Assembly: GCA_000934665.2 (NCBI GenBank)
Contig: KZ538028.1
Location: forward strand, 1 to 64,000
Direction of reading: 5' to 3'
From: Catajapyx aquilonaris
Taxonomy: Eukaryota
DNA: 64,000 nt
Shown here: one piece after another, positions 9,601 through 62,795 of the stretch
Layout: every line of letters begins with the position of its first letter
How positions within the stretch are numbered: the first letter of the stretch is position 1
The notes under the pieces: generated by a model
What the model was told of the DNA's origin: nothing
The model's database searches: none
Seen by the model: only the letters and a program-made list of their open reading frames with translations
Position numbers and translations under genes: made by a program

Positions 9601-10656
9601 TGAGGGAGCCGGGGAAGGTGGATAGGAGTGCAAGAGGGGTGATTGGGGCTTGGGAGGAGGCGCTAGTAAATGGGGATGAGATTGTGAAGAAGGGTGGTAG
9701 TGAGGGTGGTGGTGTTGCTGCAGGTGATGTGGTAGGTAAGGATTATGTGGTGGGCATGTGGTTGAGGTGGCTGATGAACTGGAGGATGGTGTTGGGGACG
9801 AATTGGGAGAGGATGGGGATGGAGATGACGGAGATGGAGAAGGGGGGAAGGCGGCACTGGGCATTCCTGAAGGCATTGCCCCTGAGGAAGAAGAAATGAC
9901 ACCAGTTCTGGAAGTGGATGAAGTAGGAGCAGGTGAAGCAGGAGAAGGAACCTTTGCTGGGGCCAAGAATGGGTGAGGAGTCATTCCTGGCATGGCAGGA
10001 TTTGATGTGAGGTGTGAGAAAGAGGATGACAAGTTGTTCGTACCATTGCTAGTGGTGGTCACACTAGCGAAGGGTACTGGGGAGTGAGACTGCTTTGGAA
10101 TCAAAGTAGGGGCCATACAATAGGGCGTTGGAAAAGGTGGTGGGGCATGGCTAAGTTGGGGGTTGGGATGATGATAAGTAGGGTGGTGTTGATTCTGGTG
10201 ATGCAAATAACCAGAAGTGGAGTCTCCCATACCCATACCCCCCATCCCTAGGCCTCCTAAGCCCATGTCCATGTGAGCATGTGGGAATGAATGGTGTGGC
10301 TTGAGGTAGGATGACTGGAGAAGCAAGTCTGGGGGAGGAGCAGACCCAGGACCACAACCAATTGAATGAGGACTACTGCTGCTGCCACTGTTGCTTCCAT
10401 TGGTATTGATGTACGTGTTACTTGTCATCGTGGATCCAGTTGTGCTCATATGTAGTGACTGGGTCAGGGAATAGCCACCTGGATCCGCTGTGGAGGTCAC
10501 TGGGGTAGTACTTCCGGAGACTACACCTTGTCCCATGCCCAGCCCAGACCCATGTTCTCCCTGTCCTCCACTCCCTCCTCCTCCAGGGTAACTCCCTCCC
10601 ATCCCAACACCACCTAGATGATTGTAGGTGCATGGGGACCACGAACCCGGATCCAT
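3636..10656 (-). CDS. QSER1: QSER1/PRR12-like nuclear protein: low-complexity N-terminus, AT-hooks, C-terminal DUF4211 region
   Basis: Exons 10656-8178, 7806-7643, 7068-6799, 6720-6580, 5819-5519, 4331-4234, 4160-3993, 3875-3636, all GT-AG and in phase. Motifs: SFMDSFLKFL, RGRPR AT-hooks, DSDSDPAWTP, FDVYVQTLISQALD, and the C-terminus LYNQLAHQKYHF...WLATLLSDFQNLW, which resembles the PRR12/QSER1 C-terminus from memory. Confidence 0.82.
4408..5065. mobile_element. Tc1/mariner-type MITE in an intron
   Basis: Near-perfect ~38-bp TIRs CAGGGTGAAGGGAAACTCGCGGACAATCGCCAGGTAGA / TCTACCTGGCGATTGTCCGCGAGTTTCCCTTCACCTTG, subterminal inverted similarity, TA on both sides. Confidence 0.85.
4670..4823. 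mobile_element. Second TA-flanked MITE nested in the 4408-5065 element
   Basis: TA-CAGTGTTGGACATTAAT...ATTAATGTCCAACACTG-TA with imperfect arms of about 55 bp. Confidence 0.8.
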
Positions 10657-13181
10657 CTTGTTCTGGGAATAACTTCTTCCCAATTAACAGTTCCGTCTTC
10701 GCCTTCAGCCTCTCTTCCCTTGTCTCAGCTACCACATTACTCCTGAAACAGAACCTCAGTTCAAGCCAGGCCACTTACCCTCCCTATTAAATTAATTATC
10801 TCCTCTCTTAGTGCTACCACTACCACTCACCAAACTACAACCAGATTGCAGTACCTACTTCCTAACTACACTCTGCTTTAAAAAAATTTGAGGATGTCAA
10901 ATGAACCACACTGGAGCCACAAATATGCATCCAATCATTGCAATTACCTTCAGTCTCAACGCCTTTAATTTAAACACAGGCCTGATCACTCAATTACGCT
11001 TGGTTACAAATTATCAAGAAAGTGACTCATGTGGACTTTTTGAGACCCACAATGCCCACTTGAATGAGAAAAACGTAATGTTGTATGCTCTCAGAATTCC
11101 TGCAATAAACAAGTGCAGTCTCTGACATTGTCTTGTGTCATATATCCATATGATCAGGTCAGGGTGGGGGATAAAAGAGGCACTGCTAGTCACTCAGGAC
11201 ATTTCTACTGGACAGTGGAGTAGTGACAAAAGTACAACAAAAATCAGGCCAATTATCAGGAACAACAAAAGTAAATTGTGGAAGAACTACCACTGGTCAA
11301 AAGGCTGCAACACAGACCGGCACCAGGCAAATAACCACCAATCTGCACAAGAACCAACACCAAATTTAGCATTTCACAACATTCCAAATAAAAATATGCA
11401 AACACTTGTATCACAAGACAAGGTGTCACCTGACCCAGAAGAGGTCAGCCACTAGAAGAACTTGAACTTGGGGTTAATCTAAGTAAGGTAGCAGAGTGAG
11501 TTGAATGCATTTGAGTGAGTGAGTGGAGCAAAACGGAAGGAGCAAAATAAGCAATCAATCAATCAAATCCAAGCCTGGCTTAAAACCCTGGTTCTTTATC
11601 AGGAGGGGTGCATAACATGACAGGAGGGAGCTATGGTAAGAATGGCTTGAGGGGCATTTTTGTGTGGCCCTGGCCAGATTTAAATTCACACTACTATCAT
11701 CCAGTCCACAATGTCAGTCAGTGGTCTCAAGCTTTCAAATACTCTTGGTTCCACAGAAGCCATCCAGTTGCAACAAACAGTAGCAGCAGCAAACAGAATC
11801 TCTTACAGCTACAATGCTGTGCCACCAAATTAAATGATCTTTTCCCTAAGGGAAGTGAGTGCCAGCAATATCAGCTGAAGTCCAACCCACGATTCTTCAC
11901 AAAATATGACTACCTATCATTACTTTGCTCCATGTGTTTCAGGTTCAAAATAAGAACAGTGCAGAAACAAGCCAGAACAAAATTAATTGCAAAGGAACAA
12001 AATAATATGCCACTACAATATATACAAGAGGCACATTCCATCACCAAAGATTCATTTTTGCACAGAAAGGCAACCACATGCACATTAAGCAGCTTTTTGT
12101 GGCATTGCATAATACAGGGCAATACTTCATAATCCATTAACAACCATGTCCTCCAAAAAGAAAATCCTCACCATAATCTGATTCCATTCAGTACTGCAAA
12201 CAGGTTCCATTTTTATTGCACCAAAATGTAAGCAATGCCACAACACACAAAATTAAATTACAAATTTCAGGATTTCCTCATCTGCAAGTAACAGCCAAAA
12301 TTTCATTTTCAAAAAATCACATTTTAAAAACATGGTTAACAATATGTTAATCATCACTGTGTAGGTGACAGAAATATCTTTTGTCTCGTCATCACCAATA
12401 TTTCTTCCACAATAATGTTCTGGCAGATATTCCCGCAACCGCTCAGCCCATTTTGCCAAAACCAAGCACGAGTTAATTCCTTTGGACTTAAAGAGTGTTT
12501 CACAAGTTCAGCAGCAAATGAGTGGTGAGTGAGTGACAGGTGACAAGCAGCAGCCAGCAAGGCAAAAGTGAAATTACAGAACTTGGCTATCCCATATCCA
12601 AGAAAAGACATTCCAATAAACCTTGTGCAGTCCAATATTGCGGTGGCCATTAAGCACTTATCATAGTAACTGACCGCCTTAACCAAGTTTCAAAGGTTTC
12701 CATGGGAAGTTGGTCTGCCCACTTCACTCCGCATTATTGCAGCAACATGTAAATAATGCACAATTCCAAACATCTGTAGTAGGCAAGCTCTTTTTTTTTT
12801 TTACCCCACACAAGCATTCAAATAAGTTTGACCGCCATGGCAAAACATATTTTAAAAACCACTACTAGATTTTTAAAAGCAACACTGCCCACCATGCAAC
12901 AGCAGAAGTGCTACTACTGGTGGGATGCTACTTCTTGATGAATGTGTGCAACATGCCTCAGGGCAAATTCTACAATGGAAATTCATCCCAATGAAAATGT
13001 CTGCTAAAAAGTGCATTCTCAAGATCTCAAGCCACACATTTGAAGTGTTAATCTTAGCAATCAAACGTGATTTACTCGCAATAACATTCCACAAGGTGCA
13101 ATTACCTTGAGGTTTTGTCATCTCTGCAGAGCAGTGGTAGCATGAGTGCATATACAGTATTTCGCAATGCAATAAAAGTTA

Positions 13182-14727
13182 CAGTAAAACTTCTATAAGA
13201 TGAAGAAAATGTTGAGCTTGGTTGGTCACAATGTAAAATAATAGGAAATAAACTTCCCTAACTCGAATTTCTATAACTCAAAGTTCTCCATAACTCGAAG
13301 TGCTGGCAGGGCCTTACTATGGGATATCAATGCATTTTCAGTCTCTCTAGGTTGAAGTTCACGTTGGGGAGTACGGAAATTTTCTCATTTCCCAGCCGAA
13401 GAGTCGAGAGTAGGCCACATGTACAGAAATGCTCAATTTCCTGATCTCCGTCTACCAGACATACTGAAAGAAGTGTTTGACTCGATTGTGCCAATTGAAT
13501 CCTTGAATCAAAGAGTAGGCAAATGTCCACAACAGGTTTTTTTTTCACAACAAAACAACAAGGATCATTGCAAGTGTGATAGTGACAGTTATTTTTAAGT
13601 TTTTAACACCTTTTGTCACTGGATATAAAGGTAGGCTTCCTTATAGAGTTATGTGCTTTAAAAAAGCCAAACTTCTCTAGCTCGAATCTTCTATAACTCG
13701 AAGTTTTTCCCCGGTCCCATGGAGATTCGACTTATATACAGTATAAGTCGAATCTCCATGGGACCGGGGGGTTCAATAAAGACTGGCACTGATTTTTTTC
13801 CCCATGGCTATTACGTACACTATTGAACAAATAGGGTGCGTGCAAAGATCTATCGAATAAGAGTTGGTACCCACATCGACACAGTGATATTTTGAATTGT
13901 CATCCAGAGAGGGCAGCATTACCGACCCCCCCTCTCGCAAATCATCTCCTGCAATCATAGCAGCCATCAGGGACGAGCAGTACGCGGCGCTGAAATTCTA
14001 CTTCCTTTTGAAGAAGACTGCTACGAAAGCATATCATCTGTTGCAAGAAGCATGTGGAGATTATGCCATTCCCCGTCGATCCAGAAAGCAAACAGCAAAG
14101 CACAGTGTGGGAGTCTACGAACTCTCCAACACCGAAAAAAGCAAAGGTGCAGGCGAGTGCAGGGAGAGTGATGGTGATATCGTTTTTTGACATTCGTGGA
14201 ATGGTATGCCAACACATTGTTCCGCTGCATACCATCATTACTGGTGCCTATTACGTGTCTGTGATGAGGGCCCTCTTCAAAAACCGAGATCACCAATTCA
14301 CCACCACTTTCCCTGCACTCGCCTGCACCTTTACTTTTTTCGGTGTTGGAGAGTTCGTATAGACTTCCACACTGTGCTTTGCTGTTTGCTTTCTGGATCG
14401 ACAGGGAATGTCATAATCTCCATATGCTTCTTGCAACAGATGATAGGCTTCCGTAGCAGTCTTCTTCAAGCGGAAGCAGAATTTCAGCGCCGCGTACTGC
14501 TCGTCCCTGATGGCTGCCATGATTGCCAGAGGCGATTTGCAAGAGGGGGGTCGGTAATGCTGCCCTCTCTGGATGACAATTCAAAATATCACTGTGTCGA
14601 TGTGGGTACCAACTCTTATTCGACAGATCTTTGTGCATGCACCATATTTGTTCAATACTGTACGTAATAGCCAGGGAAAAAAATCAGTGCCAGTCTTTAT
14701 TGAACCGCCCTCGTGGAAGTTTTACTG
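13182..14727. mobile_element. pogo/Tigger-like MITE whose right TIR is interrupted by a mariner fold-back element
   Basis: TA-CAGTAAAACTTC at 13182 and GAAGTTTTACTG-TA at 14727, with internal CTATAACTCGAA-type repeats. The right TIR is split into TTCGACTTATA (to 13736) and GAAGTTTTACTG. Confidence 0.7.
13768..14713. mobile_element. Palindromic (fold-back) mariner derivative with internally deleted transposase fragments
   Basis: Arms of about 410 bp (~13768-14178 and ~14297-14713) are inverted copies. They encode a mariner HTH (EQYAALKFCFRLKKTATEAYHLLQEAYGD) and a catalytic-domain piece (SKQQSTVW...PKKAKVQASAGRVMVISFFDIRG). The end reads TTGAACCGCCCTCG, the complement of a CGAGGG-type mariner TIR. 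Confidence 0.88.
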
Positions 14728-18799: not shown

Positions 18800-21700
18800 C
18801 TATCTGTATGAATAATGCTGTTTCTTCTGTTGCCAAGAGCCAAACTTGACAAAGGCTGTGTTGAGGAGCCGATTCAAATGGTTTAGGGTGGCAGCTGGGA
18901 CGTGCTCCATGCGCAAGCGTTCCTGTTGAAAAAAATATTTCCTGTTGTCATCTCGCTTCTGTTATCGGTTCTGAAAGTTGTAAATATTGAACCATGGCTT
19001 ATACCTCAAGTGGCCTCAACTTGGCAGTTGCAAACCGGCGCAAGGTGTCATTCATCCGCATTGCCTTCTCTTCCAGTGATGAACTGGTGGGTGGGAAGCA
19101 TGCCCAGAAGTGGCGAAGTAGTTCTCCTAGTGAGGAATACAACTTCCTCACTTCATCCTCCAATTCAGGGGTCAGGTGCTCTACATAAATCCAAAAAGAA
19201 AACGATTAGGGAGTCAATAATGGCATTATATGACAATACTATGGATGTGCTACTTTGATATGCTATGAAACATGAACTTGAATGACTTAATAGGATCATG
19301 TACACCATTATTTCTTGAAATAACTGAATATGAAAATTAAGCAAGACGTATCCCACAAAAATTATTTGAATCTCAGCATGCAATGCTCTGTAAACTGTAA
19401 TATTACAACAAACCTCCACTATAAACTCAAAACATGAGCTTTTAATAGCAATCCACACTTTGCATGTCAAATGATTACGCAAGCACTAGGGATTAGAAGT
19501 TGGTTACGCACGTGCAAGAGTGTCGCTCCTAGGTGCCGTCATAAGGGCTCCACCAGGACTCAAGTCAGCTATCACAAGTCCCACGATGTCGTGGTTAAGA
19601 AGTGGTGAGGATGAGTAGGTCATCCCACTCGATGTAGGCCATTTCGACACCTCTGATCTGAGGATCTGGGCACAGCGGAACGCCTCGTCAAGACTAGGGA
19701 TCTGCCCTGAGGCAGCGACTGAGCCACCAGGAGCACCAGACGATGAGGAAGAATTCATGGAGGCAGTAGGGGTGGCAGTAGGAGCTTGGCAGTAGCGCTC
19801 ACGGTGATTCAGGACTAAGGGCTCGGCAGCCTTGTCTGACCTGCCAATGCCTTGATCCTTGCTATTGCTTATATTGCCAAGGTCTTCGTAGACAATCTTT
19901 TCAGCCACAGCTTGCTTCTGATAATGCAAGCATCGTATTAATTATCCAGTGTACACCTGTATGATAGCGTGACACAAGTACTTAAAGAATGAAACCTAAC
20001 CAGATAACACACCACTACCCAAGAGATTCAAACAAGAGTCAATAGAACCCAAGAGCACCTTTTCCATTGGAGACACCTCCAGTGGTTCATATGTCTCCTC
20101 AACAACTATCTCTTCAGCCTTTCTCTTCTTCCCTTCTGATTTGCTCCCCTTTCCTTCCTTCAGTACATCGTTCTGGCTCCCTTCCTGTGCCAAAGGCGCT
20201 GCTGGTTCACCAGTACTTCCTTGCTGGCATGCACGCAAAACCATAATACTATGCTGATTAAATCTGTAATAAGAAAAAAAGGAAGGCAATGAATACTTTT
20301 TTCATTACACTCACGGCATATTCCCAAGATGGGGTTACCAGCAATGACCAGGAACAATCCACCTGGCCATCTCGTACGAACAGTTTAATGTATCATTAAT
20401 GATTACTTCATTCCAAATAAACAGCTTTTGACCTACTATCTGTTTCAGAATTTAGTACCCATCAATTTCAATTAAAATTTCACACACTTGCTCATGTGAA
20501 GTCACATTAATTCACATAAAATTATCCCCAAGGCTCACAGAATGGGCAGCTCAAGTATCTACTCAGTTAGCCAATCTGACCTGTCCATGGTCTTATGGTC
20601 AATTTCTAGAGCAGTAGTTTAAACTCAGCTTGTGCATACGCCCTTCATTCAGTTTAAACTCCCCTTCTGACACTCCACATTTCTCAAGCACTGCCTAACC
20701 ATTGATTACTACCCAAAACCTCTTCCCACTGGTTATAATTGCACCATTGCCACTTGGCGAGCTTCTGACTAGTCCCCCCTCCATTGCGTGAACCCATCTG
20801 AACTGGACTGTTAGAGTTTACGCTGAGCCTTTTGCCTAGAAAAAAGTAATTTTCCACGACAAGAATATGGGAAAGACATACCGCTTAATAATGTTTTGTT
20901 GAACAATGTTGACTGTGGACTTCCCTGCACCTGGGTCTGTAGGGTCCATATGGCCTTGAGATAGGTCTACAAAGTCATCAAATCTCCCCAGGTCAACCAG
21001 GGGGTTTCTTACTCCTGTGGCTGCATCCCTCTTCAGCTGCGCTTCATCAAGCCGGGCACACTCGGCAAAGAGGTCTTTGGTAGAGGAGGATGAAGACGAG
21101 GGTGGCATGCACAGCCGATCTCGATGGAAGTAATGTGATTGAAAGAAACGTGTCCAGAACTCTGACTCTGTGATTTTCCCAGGCACATATTCAGCATGTT
21201 TCTGTCGCACCACCGGGTATGTCCTGAAGATTGCCTCCATCAGATCTGGGGTGAGGTTATAACGAAGACCATTGCATCCATCTGTTACAGGCCTGATTTC
21301 TGCCAAAAAGGCTCCCGATACACCCACTGCCTGTCGTCCATTAGTAGTTGACACACCATTGTTGGCAAGAAAGTTTGGTGCATGGCGGGTCCAAAACTCC
21401 TCTGCAGTAACCACTTGTGATGCCACCAGGTCATGGTACAGCCGCAGAAGATGTGGGTTGTTGGTCAACACTCTGTTCTTTTCCTCCAGCTCAGGGTTGA
21501 TCTTGCGCTTGAACCGAGGGAGCAATCCCTGAAGCACTTCCTTCACCTGGTCCCTCTCAGACACCTGCTTCTGGTGACCACCAGAGGCACAGAACTGAAA
21601 GGTGGATGACTGGCCATCATGCAGAACAATCTGCAATTGCACCTTTGCTTTTCCCTCTGGGCTGATCTTCTGAAGTTTCACATCTGAGTAGCGGTGGACC

Positions 21701-21831
21701 ACACCAAACTTGTCCTGGTTGGAGTCTGACATCCAGCCCACTCTCTCTGCCATTACGTACAGTGTTCCCTCGCCCTTCTTGTATCGCACATGCTTCATTT
21801 GAAGCAGCACATCTTCTGATTCCCGAGACAT
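18800..21831 (-). CDS. GTF2H1: General transcription factor IIH subunit 1 (p62/Tfb1)
   Basis: Exons 21831-20882, 20263-20059 (donor least certain), 19917-19512, 19180-19005, 18922-18800. PH-like domain (KLQKISPEGKAKVQLQIVLHDG), BSD domains (EEFW; TESEFWTRFFQSHYFHRDR), RFNQHSIMVL and ELLRHFWACFP. Confidence 0.95.
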
Positions 21832-22620
21832 CTTGCTGCAAAGAGAAGTGTCAGGTAAAATTATTACAATTCAAAGACTGCATTACATGATAGGGATTCA
21901 CAATATTGACATCTCTCGTGGTACATCAGAAAAACCCATCGACTAGCTGGACATTTTACTGACTTCTATTGATTCTCGGCGCTAAAAATGGATCCATTGT
22001 GATGTGCATTTTCCCAATTACCTACGCCATACAGGAAGGGTGAGATGCATTATACATCACAGGGTGGTTACAAGAAGTACTATAAAGCATTAGTATGCTT
22101 TGTCAAGATTTTCAGGCCAAACATACTTTCTTCGCTCATTTGTGATGAAAAAACTTGTAATTATAAATGAAACTTGACAACTTTGTATAATGTAGCCTGA
22201 AAAACTCTAGTGCACTTTTTAAAATGCAAACACAACAACCACATTTTCCAGCTTCCTCATGAAATCCATGTGATAGCCACCATTAACCCAGAGCCCTTAG
22301 TTTCAAACCTGCTATGTCAATTTGTGATTCAAAAAGAATATAACACCAGATTTCTCTTGCCAACAACAAATATTCCTGTTGGAAAGTACATTCCACTTTT
22401 TTTCAACACAAAATAAAAACATCACTAAAATGACCACAACTGTTTCTTATCCAATACCAGGCATGAAAGAATGCCGAACAATAGAGCAAAGGATTCTAAG
22501 AATGTTATGTAAGATATGCAGACTTTTTCACTTGACCTTAGCTTCTCCCCTTTGAGTAATACAACAAAAGACCACCTTCCAACTTTTCATGCAATCACTG
22601 TGTTACATAACTTCTTGATG

Positions 22621-22947: not shown

Positions 22948-23322
22948 CTTCTTGATGTCTGATGATCCCATTACATCAAAAATAAAATAACATATATTTT
23001 AAATTCCTGGACCAAATATTAAAACCACAGTATAATTTTCTACATACATCTCTGAACTTACTTTCACCATGTGCAAGAATGTGCCCATACTTAGATAGCA
23101 TTTTTAGCAATCATATGAATGTTCTTATCCCATCCTATTTTCAAGGATGCTGTTATCCCAGAACTTGCAATTACTACACATGTGTAACCTGCCCCAAAAA
23201 ACCAGTGCTGTAAGCATTTCCCATTGTGATTGCTCTTTACATTTGCTGTTTTTTCGCTTGACTCAATATAAAGCTGTGCTGCCATTTCATACAGTATTTG
23301 ATCATGGCAAATGTAGCTATTA

Positions 23323-23448
23323 GGGACGGTTTCACCAAGACCGGTTTATAATGAAAACCCGGTTCTTACGGAAAATCCCTACAAATTTGTAGGGGTTTTC
23401 CGAAAGAACAGGGGTTTTATCATAAACCAGTCTTGGTGAAACAGGCCC
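23323..23448. mobile_element. PIF/Harbinger (Tourist-like) palindromic MITE
   Basis: TTA-GGGACGGTTTCACCAAGAC...GTCTTGGTGAAACAGGCCC-TTA: 3-bp TTA duplication, and the whole element is an imperfect hairpin. Confidence 0.75.
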
Positions 23449-23472
23449 TTACTCAGATACCCACAGAACATA

Positions 23473-48573: not shown

Positions 48574-51500
48574 CTACTGCTGCAGCTGGACGTAGTTTGC
48601 AGGGAACAGCCCATATTGTCCCTTGCACAGGCCACGCCACCAGCCTTCGTCAATCTGCAAATTTCCACAACAAAACGTCACCAAAAGCTGCCCCTGCACT
48701 TCATGGAACAACTTACCATTTCAACACTGGTGATGATGTCATCTGGATCAAATGAAATCTCGTCCTCTGCAGCTGTGAAAGAAGAGGATTTATGAAGCCA
48801 GCTTCTGTCTATACCTTAGACGCATGCTAAAAATCTATCCATAACACAGGAGGTGAGAGGGAATTGTGAGGTCGAATCTTGTAAACGAGGAGTAGGGTGG
48901 TGGGCAAACATTTGTCGCTACTTTATTTTTGGGTCATCTCTTTGCATGATTCTCCTCTAAGTTCCAATGCAAATAGTGCACTCACCAGCCTGATAATCAT
49001 ATAGTGCAATTGCACTGATGCCTGTGTCCTCTCCCATCTCACCAACCACCACTCCCTCCTCTTCTGCTTCTTCCTCCACAATGGTATTCTCATAAGTAGC
49101 CTCTTCCACTTCTGGAACTTCAATCCGTGGGGCCACAGCTTCCTCAACATGCTGTTTGGGTGGTTCTGGTGGCGGTTGTTGCGGAATATGAATCTGCGGT
49201 TGTTGCGGCATCTGAATCTGCGGTTGTTGCGGCATCTGAATCTGCGGTTGTTGCGGCATCTGAATCTGTGGTTGTTGTGGCATCTGAATCTGCGGTTGAT
49301 GCACATTCTGCGGTTGCATTGTTTGTGGCTCTGGTGTTGGTTCAGGTTGCTGTATGCCTTCTGGTTCAGGCCTCATTGCAATAGTCGATGTCTTGTTCTC
49401 AATTGTTGGCACTGCTGTGACAGTTGCATTGTTTGTGGTATCCCTCTGCCTTTCCTCCTCCTCCCTCTCCTTCCTCCTCTGCCTCTCTGCCATTGTCCTC
49501 TTTGCACCTTCGTCCTCCTGGCTGCGAGCCATGCTCTCAAACTTAGCCCTCAGACCTGACGCCTTTCTCTCTGGAACTGGACATCCAACGTTAACCTTGC
49601 TAACCCCTAAATTCATTGTAATGGGTATTACCTGGCACGTTAGCCCTTTCTGGTACACCCCTAGGTAGACCACCCTCCTCCTCCTGGAATCCATGAGCAC
49701 TCTTATCCATTCTGTCGCTCTGCACGCCAAATTTCCCTCCAAACCCCTTCTTTTGATCGGTCTGGCTCTCATGCTGGTGAAGCGACTCCACGTGATCCCA
49801 TCCAACTGCTGACCTGTCAGTCCTGTCGCTCTGGACACCAAACTTGCCACCAAATCCCACGGAGTAGTCTAAGGAATTTTCAATACACATGCATTAACAC
49901 ACGAGTCAAAGTTGAGGTTCAAATACACCACCACCATAATGGCAATACGATTAACAGGTCACAGTGCAGGGTGTGTTAGACAACTTCCAACAACAGGTGC
50001 AAGCTTAGGTCAAACCAACACCACAATTGCAAAACTCCATCATTTTTTTACCCTTCTGTGAAGGATGTTTCTCGACCTTCTCAATGTGATCCCAACCAAG
50101 GGCACACTTGTCCTGCTGGTTCTTCTGCACTCCGTACCTCCCACCAAATCCAAATGAATAGTCTGAAAATTCCACTACTCATTACATCTTGCCCATTAAT
50201 GTTAAGCCAGCCATGTCCTGGCCAATCACAAAACATGAAGCCATGACATGTATTGCATTTTACGAATGAACCGGAAAAGAGTACGTATACATTACTTCAC
50301 AATAATTATAATGTTTAAAACTTGAAGAGCATAGCAATTCATTGAAAGCAAGTATCATTGAAAAATCTGAAAGTGAGCAAATCTACAGTCAGTTGAAACG
50401 ACACTGATTTAACTTTCACTAATTCCTTATGTCAAAGTTTTTGGACCAATGACCACTGACCTTTCTGTGACTCATGCTTCTGAAGTTTCTCAACATGATC
50501 CCAGCCAACTGCAGACTTGTCTTGCCGATCTGTCTGCAGCCCATATTTGCCCCCAAATCCAGCTGAATAATCCTTCTGTGACCCATGCTTCTCTACTTTC
50601 TCCACATGCTCCCAGTTCACAGCACACTAAAAGAGACGCAGGCATCCTAATATACCTTCACATCTTAAACCGTGCGAATGGGAGACTCTTGAAGGAAAGT
50701 ACCTTGTCAAATCGATCCTTCTGCACTCCAAACTTTCCACCAAATCCTGAGGAGTAATCTTTCTGCGATGCATGCTTCTCAACCTTCTCGATGTGGTCAT
50801 GTCCCAGAGCAGACCTATCCATCCTGTCAATTGCACGAAATTAATGACTGGAAAGTCCAGATAGAGCATCATCATCCCTTACCTGTCAGACTGAACTCCA
50901 AATTTCCCGCCATATCCATACGATGCCTGAGGCCCCTCCTCCATTTGCTGCCGCTTAAACTCTGCATCCTCTTTTGTGGCCTCCTCCCTCAGGCGGCTCA
51001 TGCTATACAAAAATCATGCAAGTTAGTGGTATGCAGTACGCATGTAAAAAGAGATCTGCTTGTTTTTCTGTCAGGTTAACAAGGCCAACCATACTACAAT
51101 TTGCATGCTGTAACAAATCACAACCGAAGGAGAATATTCCTGTTGTGTATTTGGCTACATAAGATGGCACATACCAACAAGTAATGTGTGACATTCCAAT
51201 GCATCTATTTTTCAAATATTCTCTGCCATGTTATTACACTCCATGTCTGAATAACACCATAGGATAAAACTACACTCATCACCATCATACATCATGGCAT
51301 GTCCGATGTCCCAATAAAAGGTGTTCCAGCAAATCAAGAGGAACTTCTACAATCCTCATGTAAAACTACAAATGGTACTATATCGCTCAAAAAGATAGAG
51401 ACGATTGGCATTTGATTCAAGTGCAAGTTGCACTTGAGTCAAATGCAAAATCGTCTCTATCTTTTTGGGCGATATAGTACATATGAATATTGCACACTAA

Positions 51501-53353: not shown

Positions 53354-56300
53354 ATGGGTGAGTGAGTCTCCTGCACTTGACCTCATTTCAGGAGCCATAA
53401 GGCGCCACACACGACATTGGATATATTAATAGCGGATATTTGCACTGTATGTGACAGACGCTTAGAAAATGCGTTATCAGATAATGGGAGATAACAGGTG
53501 GCTATAGGCAGTGGTGTGGCGAACAAAGGTAGTATAGTCCGGGATGAGTCAACACAGGAGTCACAGGCGGAGGCAGGGATCCATGGACTACGTGGGCGGC
53601 AACCGTTTCCGTACGTGCCTCTTCACATGGGTTTGGCCTGCGGAATACTGCAAATAAGTTTAAGCGTCGCAATTATTTGCAATCAAAAGTAATGTGGACT
53701 TGCTATTTGCTGTAGCTGTGATATTACCTGCAGATTAGAGAGAATTCACCCACAAAATATTAATGACCAAATTTTGTTACAATAGTAATCATCATCACCA
53801 TTTCCCTAACAAATGGGGGCCAGCAAATAATTAGGAAAAGGCCCTCTTTATCCTCACAATAGTAGTAATAATACACAGCCGGCATTGGTGGACTAGTGGT
53901 CAGCGAGCTCGCCTCTGGTCCCAAGGTTGTGGGTTCGAACCCGGCCGAGGTCGGTGACTTTCCTCCGGGTGGTAGAAAAGTGAGAGTGCGCCTTCCTTCG
54001 GAGGGGAAGTAAAGCCGTCGGTCCCGTGTGCTTGTGACATTGCGCGAGTGCACGTTAAAGATCCCCAGAGTGGCCAAATTTCCAGGAGGAGGACCACCCC
54101 CTGGCCTTAGAGCAGAAATAGGCCGACGTTAAGCCCCACTGAACCCAGTAGTAATAATACACTGTACTTCAGATTATCTGGGTGCGGATTATCTGTGCAT
54201 CACCAAAGCAAAGGAAATAGTTCCAGTACGAAAAAAAATGTATGTCTTGCAAATTAAGAAATATTGCCAACTTTTTCCAGAAGACAGACTAAAAATGTAT
54301 TGAAAGTTTCATTATTTTGACTCTAAAGCAGAGTAAAGTATGTACTCTATATCGCTCAAAAAGATGGAGATGATTTTGCATTTGTTTCCATGCAAAATCA
54401 TCTCTATCTTTTTGAGCGATATAGTACAGTGGTTCACTTAAAACCTCAGAACAGCTCACTTTTACGGTATTTAGAACCTTCTGATTATCCATGTTTTTAA
54501 AATTATCTGGCGACACCTGCACAATCATTAGCCGGGGTAATCAGCAGTACAGTTAATAAAAATGAGGTCCAGCTTAGCTGTGTGAATGACCATATTTTTG
54601 TGTAACTCGGTAGCAAATTTTGTCACGTGCTATTTATACCCATCTCATCTTAGGACAAGAGTGTGAATCATGCATGACACGGATCCCATACGGCACCCTG
54701 ATTGCGACCATCCTGTGTGTCGTTGGGGTGGGGGTGTTCTGCGGTGGGGCGTACCGTGGAGCGATGCTGGCTCGGCTGATGTTGGAGAAGGTGTTCTACG
54801 TTCAACCAGGGTGGCTTGAGCCTACCCAGATGGCGCTGGTGGTGCTTGGAGCATGCACAGGTGCTGTGGGGCTGCTGGTGCTGGTGGTTGGCTGCCTGGC
54901 CACGGGAGAGACCCGCACCCGCGTCTACAGGGCTTGGAGGGCCAGGGTTGGCGGACGGGTCTCCTGCGGGGTTCTGATGGGCCTCTGCTACCTGCTGTGG
55001 ATGGCCTGGTGCTTGGTGTTCCTCTTCGTGGCCTCCGTGACTGTCACCTGCACCTTCTGCTTCCTGCTGTGCTACCACATGAGCGGGGAGGCCAACCACC
55101 AAACCATCGATTTCCAGCAGTTCTGGTTCCTGTTTCCAGAGGGAACTAAGAGGGAGCACATGATCCTCTCCAAGCAGGAGCAGGTCAGGGAATTCTGCAA
55201 GGACTACATTGAAAGGGCTGAGGTCATGTTTGGTGTCGCCTTGATTGCTGCCTTCATTGTCGTGCTGAGCCTGGTGAGTGACAAGAGCATGGAATATTGA
55301 CTCATGTGCTATTTCACTAGCCATGAAAATCTCATACTGTGAGCACATATTGTAAGATATTAATTTTACAAGGTAACTTGCATTTTCTCCATCATTTTTG
55401 GAGGACCTCAGTAATAACATGTCAGTTTCAAACTAATCTACCAGTTCTGCTCTATGTATCAGTAAACAACATGTTTTATGCAAACTGAGTGGTTGGCTAG
55501 CGCATCCCAGATGGTCATAGAGCACAGGCATGTCCCATGACACAATTCCCATGATGTTGCCTTTCATTGGTGAAAGTTTGGATCCAGATGGGTAATCACT
55601 GATAATTGTGGCTGGGATGGAGCTTACTGCATTCATTGCAACTGTTACCTTCAACCACTGGGTGTGTAATTTTAATGAGACGCCTAGTAATGAGTATTAC
55701 AGGGAATACTGAGGTGTACTGTTATGAAATGAAGTTCACACAAAATAAGAAACAAGTGAAACTTATATGCAGTGTGTATATATTTGATTCGTTTAGCAGG
55801 TCGAGTACTACAGTAATTCATAAATGAGCCAAGGATAACAGAAAATATTTATTCGTATTGCATTTCCCAACAAATCCTAAAATGCATGGTCACCAAGATT
55901 AACACAAATTTTGTCAAGTTAGTACATTATCACTGCAATAATAGTAATGACAAAAATTGGTACTCTCCATGCCTAACACTGAATTGTGCATGAGAATTTA
56001 CTAATGCCGCTGTATGCTCAGTCTCTTATTGCTTTGATATCACAAGCTGGCAGTGAAAGTGATGAAGTGGTTTGTACATATCAAGAGTCATTGTTTAGTC
56101 CATTGCCGCATTAGTGAATTCTACAGCTACAATTCAATGTTGCTGGTGTAGGGCACTGCTGACAGTCATGGTTAATTCTTAATGATAATTACATTTGATT
56201 TGAGAAAAATTTGCCTAGGTCGACAGTACACTTCCAATCCCACAAAAACAGTTGAGGTCATTTTTCCTCTCGCAATAAATTCAGTGTCCATCTAGGGGGG

Positions 56301-57442: not shown

Positions 57443-60400
57443 TCACGTGCGACCTCTCTGTCCTCCGTCACTGTTGACGAGCCATTCAAGAACCTTAGGC
57501 ATGAGAGCCATCCGCCCTTGCAGTCCTTGGGGAAGGGGCTGACTCGGACGGTATGTCTTGACACCATCACCGTGCCCACCATCTTTTACCTTTACGATGT
57601 CAGATTTGGAGCTGAAAGACACTTTCATCCCGTCACTGAACTCAACTTCCACTTCCCCGCTTGACAGTTGCGTTGCCAGTCCAACCCCGGGAACCTTGGT
57701 GCGCTTCATAACTAGGCGGCGCCCCTGCATTGAGTTCACGCTAGACGTAGGCGGAACATTCTCCTTGCCTCGCAGGATGTTTTTGTCATAGGTCTGTGTT
57801 GGCGGGTCAGTCGTAGGTCTCCTACCCAGCACTATGGGGAAGTAGAAAGAGGAATTTGATCCTCGAGATGACTCCGTCATAGAAGTTGCACTTGACGCCA
57901 TCATGGATCCCATTCCTGTCACATGAGTTTGCAAACCCTCAATAGCAGCCTCGATTCGAAGGCAGTGTTGAAGGCAGTCAAATGTATGTGACAGAAGGTC
58001 AGAGGCATTGGGACCCAAGCCTGGGGCCAAACCATGGACCAACACACTGGCAGACAGCTGGTGAGATTTCCCATTACGCTCAATTACCTTCACACCCTCT
58101 GTTGTCCGTGTCACTTTCCCACCTGCAAGGAAAGAGGGGAATGACGACGTGCACTTGCATTGCTATGGACACATGACATTTGAAACTAACCTTTATAAAA
58201 TACAGCTTCCACGTCTGAGTTGGGCGAGTTCTCCATTAGCATGAATTTCGACCTGGGGCTGTAGAAGGTAATCTTGGGTGTCTTGGCCCTGACCAAGTTC
58301 ACAAACCGAGCAGCGTAGGTGTACTTCTTCCAGTACTTCTTCGGGAGACTCTCGTAGCCAAAGATGGCATCTGCACCCTCAGGTGCTAAGAGTGGTGGGG
58401 ACTCGCCCAGCATTGTCCCTGAAGGTGGCTTGTGCACAGCCACCCTCAGCCCATCCGATGAGACGCGATACACTTCTCCCACCCTCTCGCCTGCCTTGAG
58501 CACCTCAAGGACCACCTCCCCTGATTGGGTTATAGTCAGGACCATGTTCTTGGCCCTCTGGCGGTTTGGGCGGAGACGTTGGGAATTCAAGGGTGGGCCC
58601 AGAGTCACTTGGGATGGCTCGGGAGTTGGCACACGTTTTGGTGGATACTGTGGTTTAGGAGGACACTGGTGGTGTCTGCAGGAGCACAGATCGTAATGAG
58701 AGCATGTGGTGCAGGGGTGCGGATGGTTACACTGTGCACCAGCACTTGCCCCTGCTTCGGATCTGGGGCGGGCATGCTGGTTGGTTGGAGGGAGAGGGGC
58801 TAACTGAGGATGATGGTAAAGGGATGGCTCTGACAGGGTGGAGGCTCGCCCCAAGCCGGCACGTCCTGACCTCGCATGGAAAGGTGGTGCCACATTGCTG
58901 GGCCCAGGATACTTAGCTCTCAGGCAATTCTTCGCATCCACACAAGAAGGGTCACTCATGGCCGATTCAGGTGGTTCACTTCTTGCAGGCAAACCTGAGA
59001 ACTGATCTTTCAGGTGACTCCTGAAATAAAATATTCTGATGTAATGCACTATTTTGAAGTAATTGACATGGCAATTCACAGAACGTATTTGTACTGTACA
59101 GTCTACGTTACTGCGTATTTATTAATATGGCTCACTCTCACAATGAATGAACGGATTTCATATTTTGGGAATATTCATGAATATACTCAGCATACCTTTG
59201 CCTGGACAATGCTGATCCTGTAGACATGGTACAATGTCCACTGTCAATTGAACCTAGGCCAGATCCAGTAGGCCCGTGCACTTGCCTTCCGGCCCCTGTG
59301 GTCAGGAATGGGTGTGATAAAATATCCGTCAATGGTATCCTCTCCTTGGGATTCTTCCTGAGGAGCTTTTCCAGCAGGTCTTTCACTTCCCTGGAAAGCG
59401 AGTCTGGGAGGGTGAGGTCATCCATGGCCACCCGGGTCAGCGTCCCTCGAACCCCATCCACCTCCGAGTCGAACGGAGGCCTGCCCACCACCATCGAGTA
59501 GAGGAGGACTCCTACACCCCAAACATCCACTTCTAGGCCATGGGCTGCCCTGGTGGCCACCTCAGGGGATATGAAGTTAGGGGTGCCACACAAGGTCAAG
59601 TGCTTCTCATCAGCACGACGCAGCTGTGTTGCAAGGCCAAAGTCGCCTATTTTCTGTGGTTATAAGCTCCGAATTAGGTGACTGTGACATTATGGCCTTC
59701 AATCAACATTAAATTAATTTTAGGCTGCATGTTTAGCCCAACTTGGTCACCATCTTATACCAATTTGCAACTGAAGTGTTTACATGTGAGCGATTTGACA
59801 AGTGAAGCGGAGCGAAGTCATCGCCGAGTGAGGTAACCAATATTGTTTGTGGTGGAAGTAACAATCGATTTTCGCCTCAAACAATACTGGTTACTCAGCA
59901 TTATTATCGCCAATGATCAAATCGCTCACATGTAAGCCCACATTTATGATCATGCAAAAACACTCCAATGGGAATATCTTACAAGTTTCAGTACTTACAA
60001 GCTGCATGTCATGTGTGAGAAGCAGATTGGACAAGGTAAGGTCCCGGTGGAGTATCCTGTGAGAGTGCAGGTAGAGAATTCCATCGGCAAGCTGCCTGAG
60101 GAACCTTCCCGCTTCATGCTCCGGAATGGCACCTCCTTTCAGTTTGAGGTAAGCCTGCAGCTGCCCCCCGAGGCACAACTCCAGCACCAGGCACACCCGG
60201 CTGTGGTCCTCGAAGCAACCCAAGAGCGTCACCACAGAGGGATGCTTCAGCCTCGAGTGTATCTCCACCTCCTGGCGCACACGCTGCAGCAGGCCCGCAG
60301 CCCGCATCCGGCTCTTCTCTATAACCTGCCAAAATTTACAATCAGTCACACTGGGGTATGGATACCCCGTACTGTCTGGAGTGGGACATACCTTGAGCGC

Positions 60401-60634
60401 CACGTGTCTTCCCGACAACCTGCATCGTGCCCGGTACACAGAAGCGAACCCTCCTTTTCCAAGAAGCTCCACCAACTCGAAATCCTCGAACCGGGTTCCA
60501 AGAGAGGGCTGCCCAGAGGACGACGAGGCGGCAGGGGTCTCGTCCATGCAGGTGTTCGCCCCGGGGCGGCCACCGGTCTCGCCCCTGACACGACCCGCGT
60601 CTATTCGCGCGAACCGGACGGACGAAGATTCCAT
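57443..60634 (-). CDS. PLK4: Polo-like kinase 4 (SAK); start could also be the ATG at 60547
   Basis: Exons 60634-60392, 60325-59999, 59653-59196, 59020-58191, 58122-57443. GKGGFA, VALK, HRDLTLSN, DFGLATQL, CGTPNFISPE, DSGHCT degron, cryptic polo box (KKYTYAARFV..VRAKTPK, LMENSP), FPIVLGRRP, and PB3 GVGLATQL. Confidence 0.95.
59780..59935. repeat. Inverted repeat, probably a MITE, in PLK4 intron 2
   Basis: TTACATGTGAGCGATTTGA / TCAAATCGCTCACATGTAA plus an inner GTAACCAATATTGTTTG / CAAACAATACTGGTTAC pair. Confidence 0.65.
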
Positions 60635-60953
60635 TGCCGCCAAACGGACGCCATCTTGAAACCAGGTCAGACGCAGCAGGGTGGCCAGATCAAGCCACCA
60701 CTCGTAACGGTCTTGGCCGGAGGACGCACTGCACAATGGCCACGACGCCAATTTGGAAAACTGCACTGACCTGGTAACCTTGTCGTATGTAAATGTACTT
60801 GCATGGTAAAGAGGGGCTTACAGTACTTGTGGTATTTATTTGACAAAATAATATGCCGTTACGTACGTGCAGTACAATACGTCACGCAATTCATGTAACC
60901 CAGGTACGGTCATACCGCGGGTATTTTGAAGTATTGCCTTTTGATTGCTTGAT

Positions 60954-61117
60954 CGGGGGTTAGCGCGAACGCAGTCCCCCACTACCAGAAATAACGCACA
61001 CGAGTTATCCACATTTGGGATAATCGCAGGGGTCAACCCAACCGTAGTGCAATGGAAGGGCCTCGCCCTGGGACAACCGCCTTGGTGATCAAGGTATGTC
61101 CCGTGCCAGGTAAGTAT
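60954..61117 (-). ncRNA. U1: U1 spliceosomal snRNA (variant sequence), about 164 nt
   Basis: 5' ATACTTACCTGG, loop I GATCAC, loop II ATTGCAC, stem-loop III CCCAAATGTGG, Sm site TATTTCTGG, terminal GGGGGACTGCGTTCGCGCTAACCCC hairpin. Confidence 0.96.
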
Positions 61118-61141
61118 GCTTTTCCCACTGCCCACGGTCGC

Positions 61142-61149
61142 TCTCCATA
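61142..61149 (-). promoter_or_regulatory. PSEB-like element of the U1 promoter
   Basis: TATGGAGA at -32 to -25 from the U1 start, the position and near-consensus of the Drosophila Pol II snRNA PSEB. Confidence 0.6.
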
Positions 61150-61579
61150 GCGGGAGGGGACAAGCTCGCACCCCTTGGCATCCCAATCGAAAGGCTCTGG
61201 AAAATTAATTGGTCATTTAAAGAGGGAGGGGGTAATTGGACTGGATGCTGTGCAGTATGAGGCCACCTTTGCACACGTGCAATGGACAATATTAATTCGC
61301 ATTGTCGTGGGATAAATCGGAGAAGATGCGTAACGAGAGTCCGACGCCAGCGCCATCTGGACGCGGGAAGCTGCCAGGAGTCGATCGATTCCTGGCAGGA
61401 ACAGTAAAAAGAGGAGGGTGGGGAGTCCAGGGAGAGAGGGCATGAATGCTGGATGAATGGGACACGTGTCTTTTTAAAAATGGACAAGACACATTACTGC
61501 AAAAATCAAGGGGGTATTCACTATTCACTCCTCACAAAATTGTACACTGGATCACCAAAAGCATCGGATCGCCGACGGT

Positions 61580-61584
61580 AAAAA
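61580..61584 (-). terminator. Pol III terminator (T5) of the expanded 5S copy
   Basis: TTTTT 3 nt after the 3' end on the minus strand. Confidence 0.6.
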
Positions 61585-61587
61585 TGT

Positions 61588-61731
61588 TGCCAAGTGCATC
61601 CGTCATTCTAGGCTGTCACCCATCCAAGTACTACCTGCCGTACCCGGGGTCCCGGGACCTACCACGTACCACCTACGTAGCTTCGCTGATCGGACAAGAA
61701 CCGGTGCTTTCAACGCGGTATGGCCCTTGGC
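61588..61731 (-). ncRNA. 5S rRNA-derived copy with 26-nt internal expansion (144 nt); variant gene or pseudogene
   Basis: Reverse complement begins GCCAAGGGCCATACCGCGTTGAAAGCACCGGTTC and ends GGTAGTACTTGGATGGGTGAC...GCACTTGGCA. 45 nt replace the 19 nt found in the + copy. Confidence 0.85.
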
Positions 61732-61826
61732 TGAGATACGATGGGGCTGTCCGGCAGTACTCATACGTCATATCCACATTCCACACATGCTGGATCCAAG
61801 TACCCCCACGATCCACTCACCCTCTC

Positions 61827-61945
61827 GCCAAGGGCCATACCACGTTGAAAGCACCGGTTCTCGTCCGATCCCCGAAGTTAAGCAACGTCGGGCCCGGGTA
61901 GTACTTGGATGGGTGACCGCCTAGGAATGCCAGGTGCACTTGGCA
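61827..61945 (+). rRNA. 5S rRNA gene (119 nt) with a few helix mismatches
   Basis: GCCAAGGGCCATACCACGTTGAAAGCACCGGTTCTCGTCCGATC..GAAGTTAAGC..TAGTACTTGGATGGGTGACC..CTTGGCA. Box A, intermediate element and box C are present. Confidence 0.92.
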
Positions 61946-61948
61946 TCA

Positions 61949-61953
61949 TTTTT
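61949..61953 (+). terminator. Pol III terminator (T5) of the 5S gene
   Basis: TTTTT 3 nt after the 3' end. Confidence 0.7.
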
Positions 61954-62482
61954 ATTGCAATCGGCCCATACATAATGCATAGTGGATATACCTGGGATAT
62001 ACTGTTTTAACTTTTGTGTCAACATATTCGTTTGCGAGACATCGTATTTTCATACTTATTTTTAATTCTACTTGTTGCAGTTGGCGATGCACGGTAGCAC
62101 GGACCAGTGTGAGAATCCGGAGCTGCCGATACAGTATAATTATGCAGTGGTTCATTAAATAAAGTAATGATTTTTATAGCGTACGCCGTACGGTTAATTG
62201 GTATTACATTACCCTTACCGTTGATGTAACACTGATACAACGTTGCCAGTTTAGTGACACGAATGCATTATGCACGAACAACTGCAGCCTGGCAGGTCAT
62301 GTCTGACCCACCACCACCGGTGAAGTTTGAGTATTGTCTTTTGATTTGTTTATCCGCCTGCTCCTGGCAGGCGACAAGAAATTACATAAGACTCAGAGTG
62401 TACCTCTCCACGGAAATCTTTAGTAAAAGGCGAAAGATTTACACGAGGATTGAAGAGGAACCAGAGTATGAATTTCAGCTCG

Positions 62483-62795
62483 TTGTTGGTTGGTTGCAAG
62501 ATGGATAAACAGGTTTACCCTGTTTATCCATCTTGGTTGGTTGGTTTTTAGGGAAATGCCTGGCTTGTATGGCTCTTTCGTATTGAGCCTTGGCAGCCAG
62601 GGGCCAGGAGTGTTATTGACCCTCCTTAGCCGGTGGGGCTGGGTAGGATGAGGATGATGTGGGTTGGAAGGGGTTGGACGGGGACGGGTGATGAGGGCGC
62701 TGTTCTCCCCAGCCGATCGCTGGGCAAGCCAACCGTGTCAACTGGTTCGACCAGGTGCCTACATACATCGATGGTCGGGCAAGCCCTTCGTGTCG
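62483..62795 (-). mobile_element. Short retroposed insertion, probably a 5'-truncated non-LTR 3' end
   Basis: Perfect 14-bp direct repeats TGAATTTCAGCTCG (62469-62482 and 62796-62809), (CCAA)n tail on the minus strand, nested 3' stem-loop CCTGGC-GGCTC/GAGCC-GCCAGG. Confidence 0.7.

Follow-up and report, generated by a model that had tools for sequence, protein, structure and literature searches.

Two 5S rRNA sequences lie head-to-head in the last 3 kb of the window (the whole 64-kb stretch of DNA that was analyzed), and the copy on the minus strand is longer than the canonical gene beside it. The question raised by this locus is what the longer copy is. The earlier note on this sequence had held four options open, namely an expanded 5S, a 5S-derived RNA polymerase III (Pol III) RNA, a SINE3 precursor, and a young pseudogene. 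An Rfam search identified U1, the plus-strand 5S, and U5 as the three above-threshold genes in this part of the window, and the match to the minus copy surfaced only in a more permissive RF00001 scan. The features of the locus are the following:

61827 to 61945, plus strand: canonical 5S rRNA gene, 119 nt (RF00001, 102.2 bits, E 3.1e-21, model positions 1–120).
61588 to 61731, minus strand: 5S-like copy, read as a pseudogene, 144 nt (RF00001, 30.1 bits; gathering score 38).
61636 to 61680, minus strand: rearranged, expanded 45-nt segment of the minus copy, standing for the canonical 19 nt (5S nt 52–70).
61580 to 61584, minus strand: T5 run (Pol III terminator-like) after the minus copy, 3 nt past the copy end, read from the sequence.
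61949 to 61953, plus strand: T5 run after the plus copy, 3 nt past the gene end, likewise read from the sequence.
61732 to 61826, no strand: spacer of 95 bp between the facing 5' ends.
60954 to 61117, minus strand: U1 snRNA gene, context (RF00003, 152.5 bits).
62354 to 62469, minus strand: U5 snRNA gene, context (RF00020, 82.4 bits).

The interval from 61580 to 61953 reaches exactly from one T5 run to the other and is part of a single-copy arthropod locus with the gene order Plk4, U1 (−), 5S (−), 5S (+), U5 (−). Open reading frames just left of U1 (57443–60817, minus strand) encode Plk4 kinase and polo-box domains. A further open reading frame, at 20836–21870, corresponds to the N-terminal part of TFIIH p62, and the named matches of this fragment among the best 120 listed were from insects, at 52–58% identity (proteins of 556–2000 aa were searched). 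This search assigns the window to an arthropod, and the listed matches included none from a near relative. Linkage of 5S with U1 exists in a crustacean. Linkage involving U1, U2, and U5 has been reported in fishes and Drosophila, according to the portion of the source used here (PMC3464664). Like these snRNA/5S linkages, the present locus places small-RNA genes of different polymerase classes next to one another. Unlike them, it is a single-copy mini-cluster beside Plk4 and contains no tandemly repeated unit.

Several further elements were observed around these genes. A 25-nt direct repeat (84% identical) was located immediately downstream of both U1 and U5 on the coding strand, at 60930–60954 and 62330–62354, and is probably a common snRNA 3' end (3' box) signal. 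Alignment of the U1 and U5 upstream regions showed no clear common promoter block. Upstream of U5, 28–66 nt from its start, there is a perfect inverted repeat of 17 nt with a 5-nt loop (62497–62535), which is flanked by CCAACCAA repeats. Elsewhere in the window, an 840-aa open frame (8161–10683, minus strand) is rich in Ser, Pro, Gly, and His, has an acidic tail and RG repeats, and belongs to no Pfam family; it probably represents one large exon of a gene for a nuclear protein of low complexity. Hairpins resembling miRNA families were seen below threshold at 51386–51469, 23321–23450, 54345–54426, and 13700–13776. The family scores (thresholds in parentheses) were 38.3 bits (58) for mir-999, 66.6 (107) for MIR1882, 45.4 (90) for mir-3129, and 40.2 (86) for mir-9261, and the mir-9261 and mir-999 matches fall on both strands, as with palindromic repeats.

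The anatomy of the minus copy was established by aligning the plus copy against it (alignment A1), which sets the true minus unit at 61588–61731. The alignment agrees with the earlier description of the locus as a head-to-head 5S pair (61588–61731 on the minus strand and 61827–61945 on the plus strand) across a 95-bp spacer, with a minus copy of 144 nt. Specifically, the interval between GAAG and GGTAGTACTTGG holds 45 nt in the minus copy vs. 19 in the plus copy, a net gain of 26 nt, as that description had it. The same holds for the parts said to be kept. Helix I retains 8 of 9 standard pairs, identical in the minus and plus copies, and so still closes; box C is intact apart from one substitution (C92A), with a 1-nt deletion (G98) adjoining it; and the T5 terminator lies at an equal distance in both copies, 3 nt past the end. 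Both copies open with identical GCCAAGGGCC, close with identical CACTTGGCA, and end ..CATTTTT. Sixteen aligned positions differ between them (15 substitutions and 1 deletion), seven of these within nt 52–70 and nine in the remaining 100 positions. Two strands are overwritten by the rearranged segment, the 3' strand of helix II and the 5' strand of helix V. Two alternative pairings had been proposed for the segment: the letters for a second helix II partner exist (CCGCGT at nt 14–19 and ACGTGG at nt 65–70), and the CCCGGG-based hairpin appears as CCCGG/CCGGG pairing in the centroid fold of the minus copy.

The covariance-model check that had been suggested for both copies was run with RF00001. 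The plus copy scored 102.2 bits, and the minus copy scored 30.1 bits (E = 0.0023 in 4 kb and 0.036 in the 64-kb window), below the gathering score of 38. The minus copy thus falls short of the score of a functional 5S (at least 38 bits), and with 144 nt and broken pairs, it also departs from the usual ~120 nt folded as a five-helix, three-way junction. The model fits only 61622–61731 of the minus copy, where it misuses a box-C-like stretch as the 3' strand of helix I.

Rfam consensus pairs were placed on the plus copy and transferred to the minus copy via A1. Standard consensus pairs numbered 27 of 34 in the minus copy vs. 32 of 34 in the plus copy. The pairs newly broken in the minus copy are 17-61 in helix II, 31-46 in helix III, 79-98 (G98 deleted) and 85-92 in helix IV, and 68-107 and 71-104 in helix V. 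In addition, a 23-nt block interrupts helix II on its 3' strand. Pairing is improved or kept at a few positions, where 25-52 changes from G-U to G-C, 32-45 changes from U-C to U-A, and 67-108 changes from C-G to U-A, the last in an alignment-dependent manner; A106G could pair with C69. At position 45, it is the plus copy that has a U-C mismatch in helix III, and the minus copy has U-A there.

Because 5S genes carry their promoter internally, the rearranged segment also bears on transcription. The promoter elements are an A box at about nt 50–64, an intermediate element at about nt 67–72, and a C box at about nt 80–97, and in the usual view, TFIIIA-dependent transcription needs a set spacing between them. 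The A box, intermediate element, and C box together form the internal control region, which TFIIIA binds first and to which it then recruits TFIIIC, as stated in the sections of the two sources drawn on here (PMC3123226; PMC10245719). Placed on this element map, the rearranged segment stands where most of box A and all of the intermediate element would be, and box C of the minus copy lies 26 bp further from +1. By its sequence, the minus copy does not have the three elements at fixed spacing that define a type 1 Pol III promoter, and it does have the T-run directly after the gene that belongs to this type. TFIIIA-dependent transcription of the minus copy may have been weakened or lost.

Folding of both copies, which had also been proposed, gave minimum free energies (MFE) of −53.8 kcal/mol for the minus copy and −40.7 kcal/mol for the plus copy. 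Folding of the 144-nt RNA does not stand out from that of shuffled sequences (z −0.87), 39 of 200 of which fold equally well or better. When the minus copy was constrained to its surviving 5S pairs, a three-way fold of −38.1 kcal/mol was obtained vs. the MFE of −53.8, and this fold rebuilds helix II using the first GGUGGUA of the insert. The consensus structure of the plus copy has −24.7 kcal/mol vs. its MFE of −40.7. Given that the gap between the constrained structure and the MFE is alike in both copies, nearest-neighbor energy does not discriminate.

The origin of the extra nucleotides is suggested by the motifs that they contain. GGTA[CG] occurs four times in the minus segment vs. once in the plus copy, and CCCGGG occurs twice vs. 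once, from which we infer micro-duplication or slippage. The insert looks like the product of repeated short local duplication or slippage around GGTAG and CCCGGG and not like a foreign element. The rearranged segment contains a 12-nt perfect palindrome. The 28-nt core of the insert has one occurrence in the 64-kb window, where 0 are expected by chance, and a 24-nt core had 0 exact matches in metagenome contigs and genome contigs, neither of which is a eukaryote-genome collection.

Outside the transcribed part, the two copies have little in common. The 50 nt upstream of the minus copy and of the plus copy are unrelated (local alignment p 0.62), and downstream of both copies, only CATTTTTA is common (p 0.046). 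Since the flanks are unrelated, the homology between the copies is that of the transcription unit, from +1 to the T-run. Remnants of 5S or U1 were sought in the spacer, and a 10-nt exact 5S match (p ~0.02) and a U1 match (p 0.05) were nonsignificant after correction for six comparisons. Inspection of the flanks of the minus copy by eye revealed no target-site duplication of the kind that borders a retropseudogene. Three histories fit these limits of homology: an old DNA duplication in which past selection, or gene conversion between the neighbors, preserved the similarity of the gene part, an RNA-mediated copy, and present selection on the transcription unit.

The public runs listed as containing the stretch 61120–62350 were four DNA runs of one sample and study, with no RNA run among them; a fifth run, of another sample, contained almost none of its sequence words. 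Raw-read support and copy number were judged from DNA contigs of three runs (X1, X2, and X3), which come from one sample that is probably the source of the assembly, and their support is not independent. In X1, a 325-nt contig with a depth of 19.5 spans 61486–61810, and in X2, a 331-nt contig with a depth of 25.3 spans 61486–61816; both have 0 other letters and 0 gaps. The unique flank at 61952–62100 has depths of 31.6 (X1) and 35.9 (X2). Contigs with zero differences at a depth near that of the flank indicate that the insert is real and about single-copy, and it is not a repeated family. The earlier note had made read support a requirement and had named a single-copy insert, together with lack of expression and absence in relatives, as the mark of a plain pseudogene; the reads of this one sample provide the read support, and contig depth points to a single copy. 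Run X3 has no contig over 61592–61687, and such a hole proves nothing. Contigs of X5, a run from another sample and of unstated kind, cover the canonical 5S only (61822–61944). Just beyond the minus terminator, at 61520–61567, contig depth reached 424–713 vs. ~30 in the flanks, with unlike sequence flanking it in other contigs; this stretch contains a roughly 30-nt piece of a repeated element.

Depths in the canonical 5S bins summed to ~22,000–180,000, a figure that should not be taken for the number of copies. The many other 5S copies in the sample do not share the trailer or the upstream region of the window copies (loose ends behind 61944 and before 61820–61824), and their contigs differ from the plus copy by 1–8 letters per 60–110 nt. 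The plus copy is itself a dispersed 5S copy. As the flanks of the bulk 5S genes differ, both copies in the window belong to one small lineage that is distinct from the main array.

A second form of the minus copy was present as a contig in X1, X2, and X3, at depths of 46.9, 35.7, and 51.8, respectively. Its path matches 61704–61741, skips 61742–61783 (42 nt of the spacer), and resumes at 61784; the form was noted over the interval 61704–61813. In the X1 bin 61688–61711, a depth of 35.1 was expected (19.5 + 46.9 × 8/24) and 35.2 was seen, which fits the second form. The unlike letters before 61704 in X1 finish with a motif resembling the helix I 3' strand, together with the first two trailer letters of the minus copy. 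We read this form as a putative relative of the minus copy that lacks the interior, roughly 5S nt 29–113. Both minus-copy forms sum to ~2× the flank depth, and an allele and a paralogous locus are both possible. An interior-deleted relative would indicate that the minus-copy lineage is losing sequence, as in decay, whether it is an allele or a paralogue. Loss of this sort agrees with the birth-and-death evolution of 5S genes (PMC3464664; PMC3123226).

The sub-threshold score, the replaced core and promoter, the broken pairs in helices III, IV, and V, the single-copy depth, and the interior-deleted relative favor reading the minus copy as a 5S rRNA pseudogene in decay, present roughly once, that faces an intact dispersed 5S gene head-to-head within a small U1/5S/5S/U5 cluster upstream of Plk4. 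We give this reading a probability of about 0.7. Among the options first listed for the locus, the pseudogene is therefore preferred (30.1 vs. 38 bits, with an overwritten core), and the qualifier "young" became doubtful because there are nine differences per 100 positions outside the segment and the flanks are unrelated beyond the T-run. Under the pseudogene reading, the middle of the minus copy (5S nt 52–70) would have been rebuilt by short local duplications around GGTAG/CCCGGG. This rebuilding would have cost the copy its in-register helix II 3' strand, its helix V 5' strand, and the box A/intermediate element, and would have shifted box C 26 bp further from +1. Incomplete decay would account for the survival of helix I, most of box C, and the T-run, with no need for selection for a new RNA. 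The minus copy would make little or no RNA, any product would not be expected to serve as a ribosomal 5S, and the copy would probably have no function. Several points stand against a pseudogene. Homology that begins precisely at +1 and stops at the T-run is also what selection on the transcription unit would be expected to leave; helix I is untouched, the T5 distance is the same, and some changes keep or improve pairing; and a 5S-like three-way fold is predicted to be possible at −38.1 kcal/mol.

Copies of this kind are already known, and on the preferred reading, the minus copy would be another example of a 5S pseudogene. A tilapia paper cited in PMC3123226 reportedly deals, by its title, with 5S "inverted sequences, pseudogenes". 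In the parts of two sources considered here, there are many reports of structurally abnormal 5S copies next to functional arrays, and these copies are attributed to birth-and-death evolution (PMC3464664; PMC3123226). Like the 5S pseudogenes and variants of fish, molluscs, and crustaceans described in those parts, the minus copy is a diverged copy with an abnormal secondary structure and indels in the coding region that is found beside functional genes, together with a large homogeneous array (PMC3464664; PMC3123226). Unlike them, it is at a unique locus, is arranged exactly head-to-head, and shows an internal gain of 26 nt instead of point changes or truncation.

A retroposed origin was considered separately. 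SINE3 is a 5S-derived SINE of zebrafish in which a 5S head is followed by a body or a LINE-related tail. In the minus copy, nothing like a tail follows the T5 run, and the copy is not repeated, so that the suggestion of a SINE3 precursor is not supported. The many dispersed copies of a 5S-derived, SINE3-like SINE are not seen in the depth (19.5 and 25.3 vs. 31.6 and 35.9 in the flanks) or in the 64-kb window, which holds a single match. Tailless 5S retropseudogenes occur in mammals, according to the excerpted text of PMC5322556. Like the 5S retropseudogenes and SINEs treated in that excerpt, the minus copy has homology limited to the transcribed part and an internal promoter (PMC5322556). Unlike them, it has neither an A-tail nor a LINE tail and is not repeated, and a source-like gene lies only 95 bp away, which would be unusual for retroposition.

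With what is left of box C and with upstream sequence, the minus copy could still be a template for Pol III and give a ~144-nt non-ribosomal RNA that is noise, a regulator, or a decoy. The start, helix I, most of box C, and the T5 run at its canonical distance are all kept, the homology is confined to the transcription unit, a 5S-like fold is predicted to be possible, and transcripts of 5S pseudogenes are known in mammals. However, other sequence stands in place of the box A/intermediate region and box C lies 26 bp out of position, the 50 nt upstream are unrelated to the upstream region of the plus copy, and a single copy with no sign of conservation speaks against a maintained RNA gene. We consider such a transcript unlikely.

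A bolder proposal is very improbable in our view. It holds that the 144-nt copy is an expressed eukaryotic 5S variant expanded at the hinge of helix II and helix V, with a Pol III promoter that tolerates 26 extra bp. Such an RNA would serve as a specialized ribosomal 5S or as a decoy for TFIIIA or for uL18/uL5, and the pair would share upstream factors. No eukaryotic 5S expansion segment was found in the consulted portion of the literature on 5S expansion segments (PMC7812874).

The pair could also act as a hairpin locus, in which Pol II readthrough from U5 or the neighboring genes would produce an imperfect dsRNA of ~110 bp that is diced. The arms of the inverted repeat are 54 nt (91%), 28 nt (96%), and 30 nt (87%), far beyond chance, and U5 lies upstream on the minus strand and is directed at the pair. 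For an RNA across the whole pair, the predicted folding energy is −239.8 kcal/mol (z −17.3), a value matched by 0 of 100 shuffles; the expectation that a transcript crossing both copies would form long dsRNA is thus thermodynamically right. Every inverted duplicate folds in this way, however, and T-runs and snRNA 3' end signals lie in between. The hairpin locus is likewise very improbable in our view.

A functional, expanded ribosomal 5S has a still lower standing. The 144-nt copy has both ends intact and its insert forms small hairpins, and expanded and normal 5S genes coexist in prokaryotes, as reported in part of PMC7812874. The same part describes 89 5S expansion segments in bacteria and archaea, whose inserts pair within themselves and spare the conserved sequence and the core pairing (PMC7812874). 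Like these bacterial and archaeal expansions (Halococcus morrhuae and others), the minus copy exceeds 120 nt and may coexist with normal copies, as far as the relevant portions of the sources extend (PMC7812874; PMC7530397). Unlike them, its core is overwritten and further pairs are broken. A clean expansion segment is not supported, as core nt 52–70 are overwritten and six further pairs are broken, and a functional 5S is also opposed by the score (30.1 bits vs. 38) and by one copy vs. a summed depth of 2e4 to 1.8e5 for normal 5S. Least credible of all is the idea that the insert arose as an artefact of assembly or sequencing, the site being palindromic and GC-rich. The 12-nt perfect palindrome, the repeated motifs, and the hole in X3 over 61592–61687 might be cited for it, against contigs of X1 and X2 that cover 61486–61810 and 61486–61816 with 0 other letters, in runs that may be the assembly's own data.

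Read as a pseudogene, the minus copy matters little in itself and is one more case of the birth-and-death turnover of dispersed 5S genes. It also marks a place where annotation pipelines will miss or mis-call a 5S-like locus. If an RNA is made from it, a working promoter with box C displaced by 26 bp would contradict the usual view of the spacing required for TFIIIA-dependent transcription. A normal 5S and a rearranged one, 95 bp from each other in the same chromatin, make this locus a compact natural test case.
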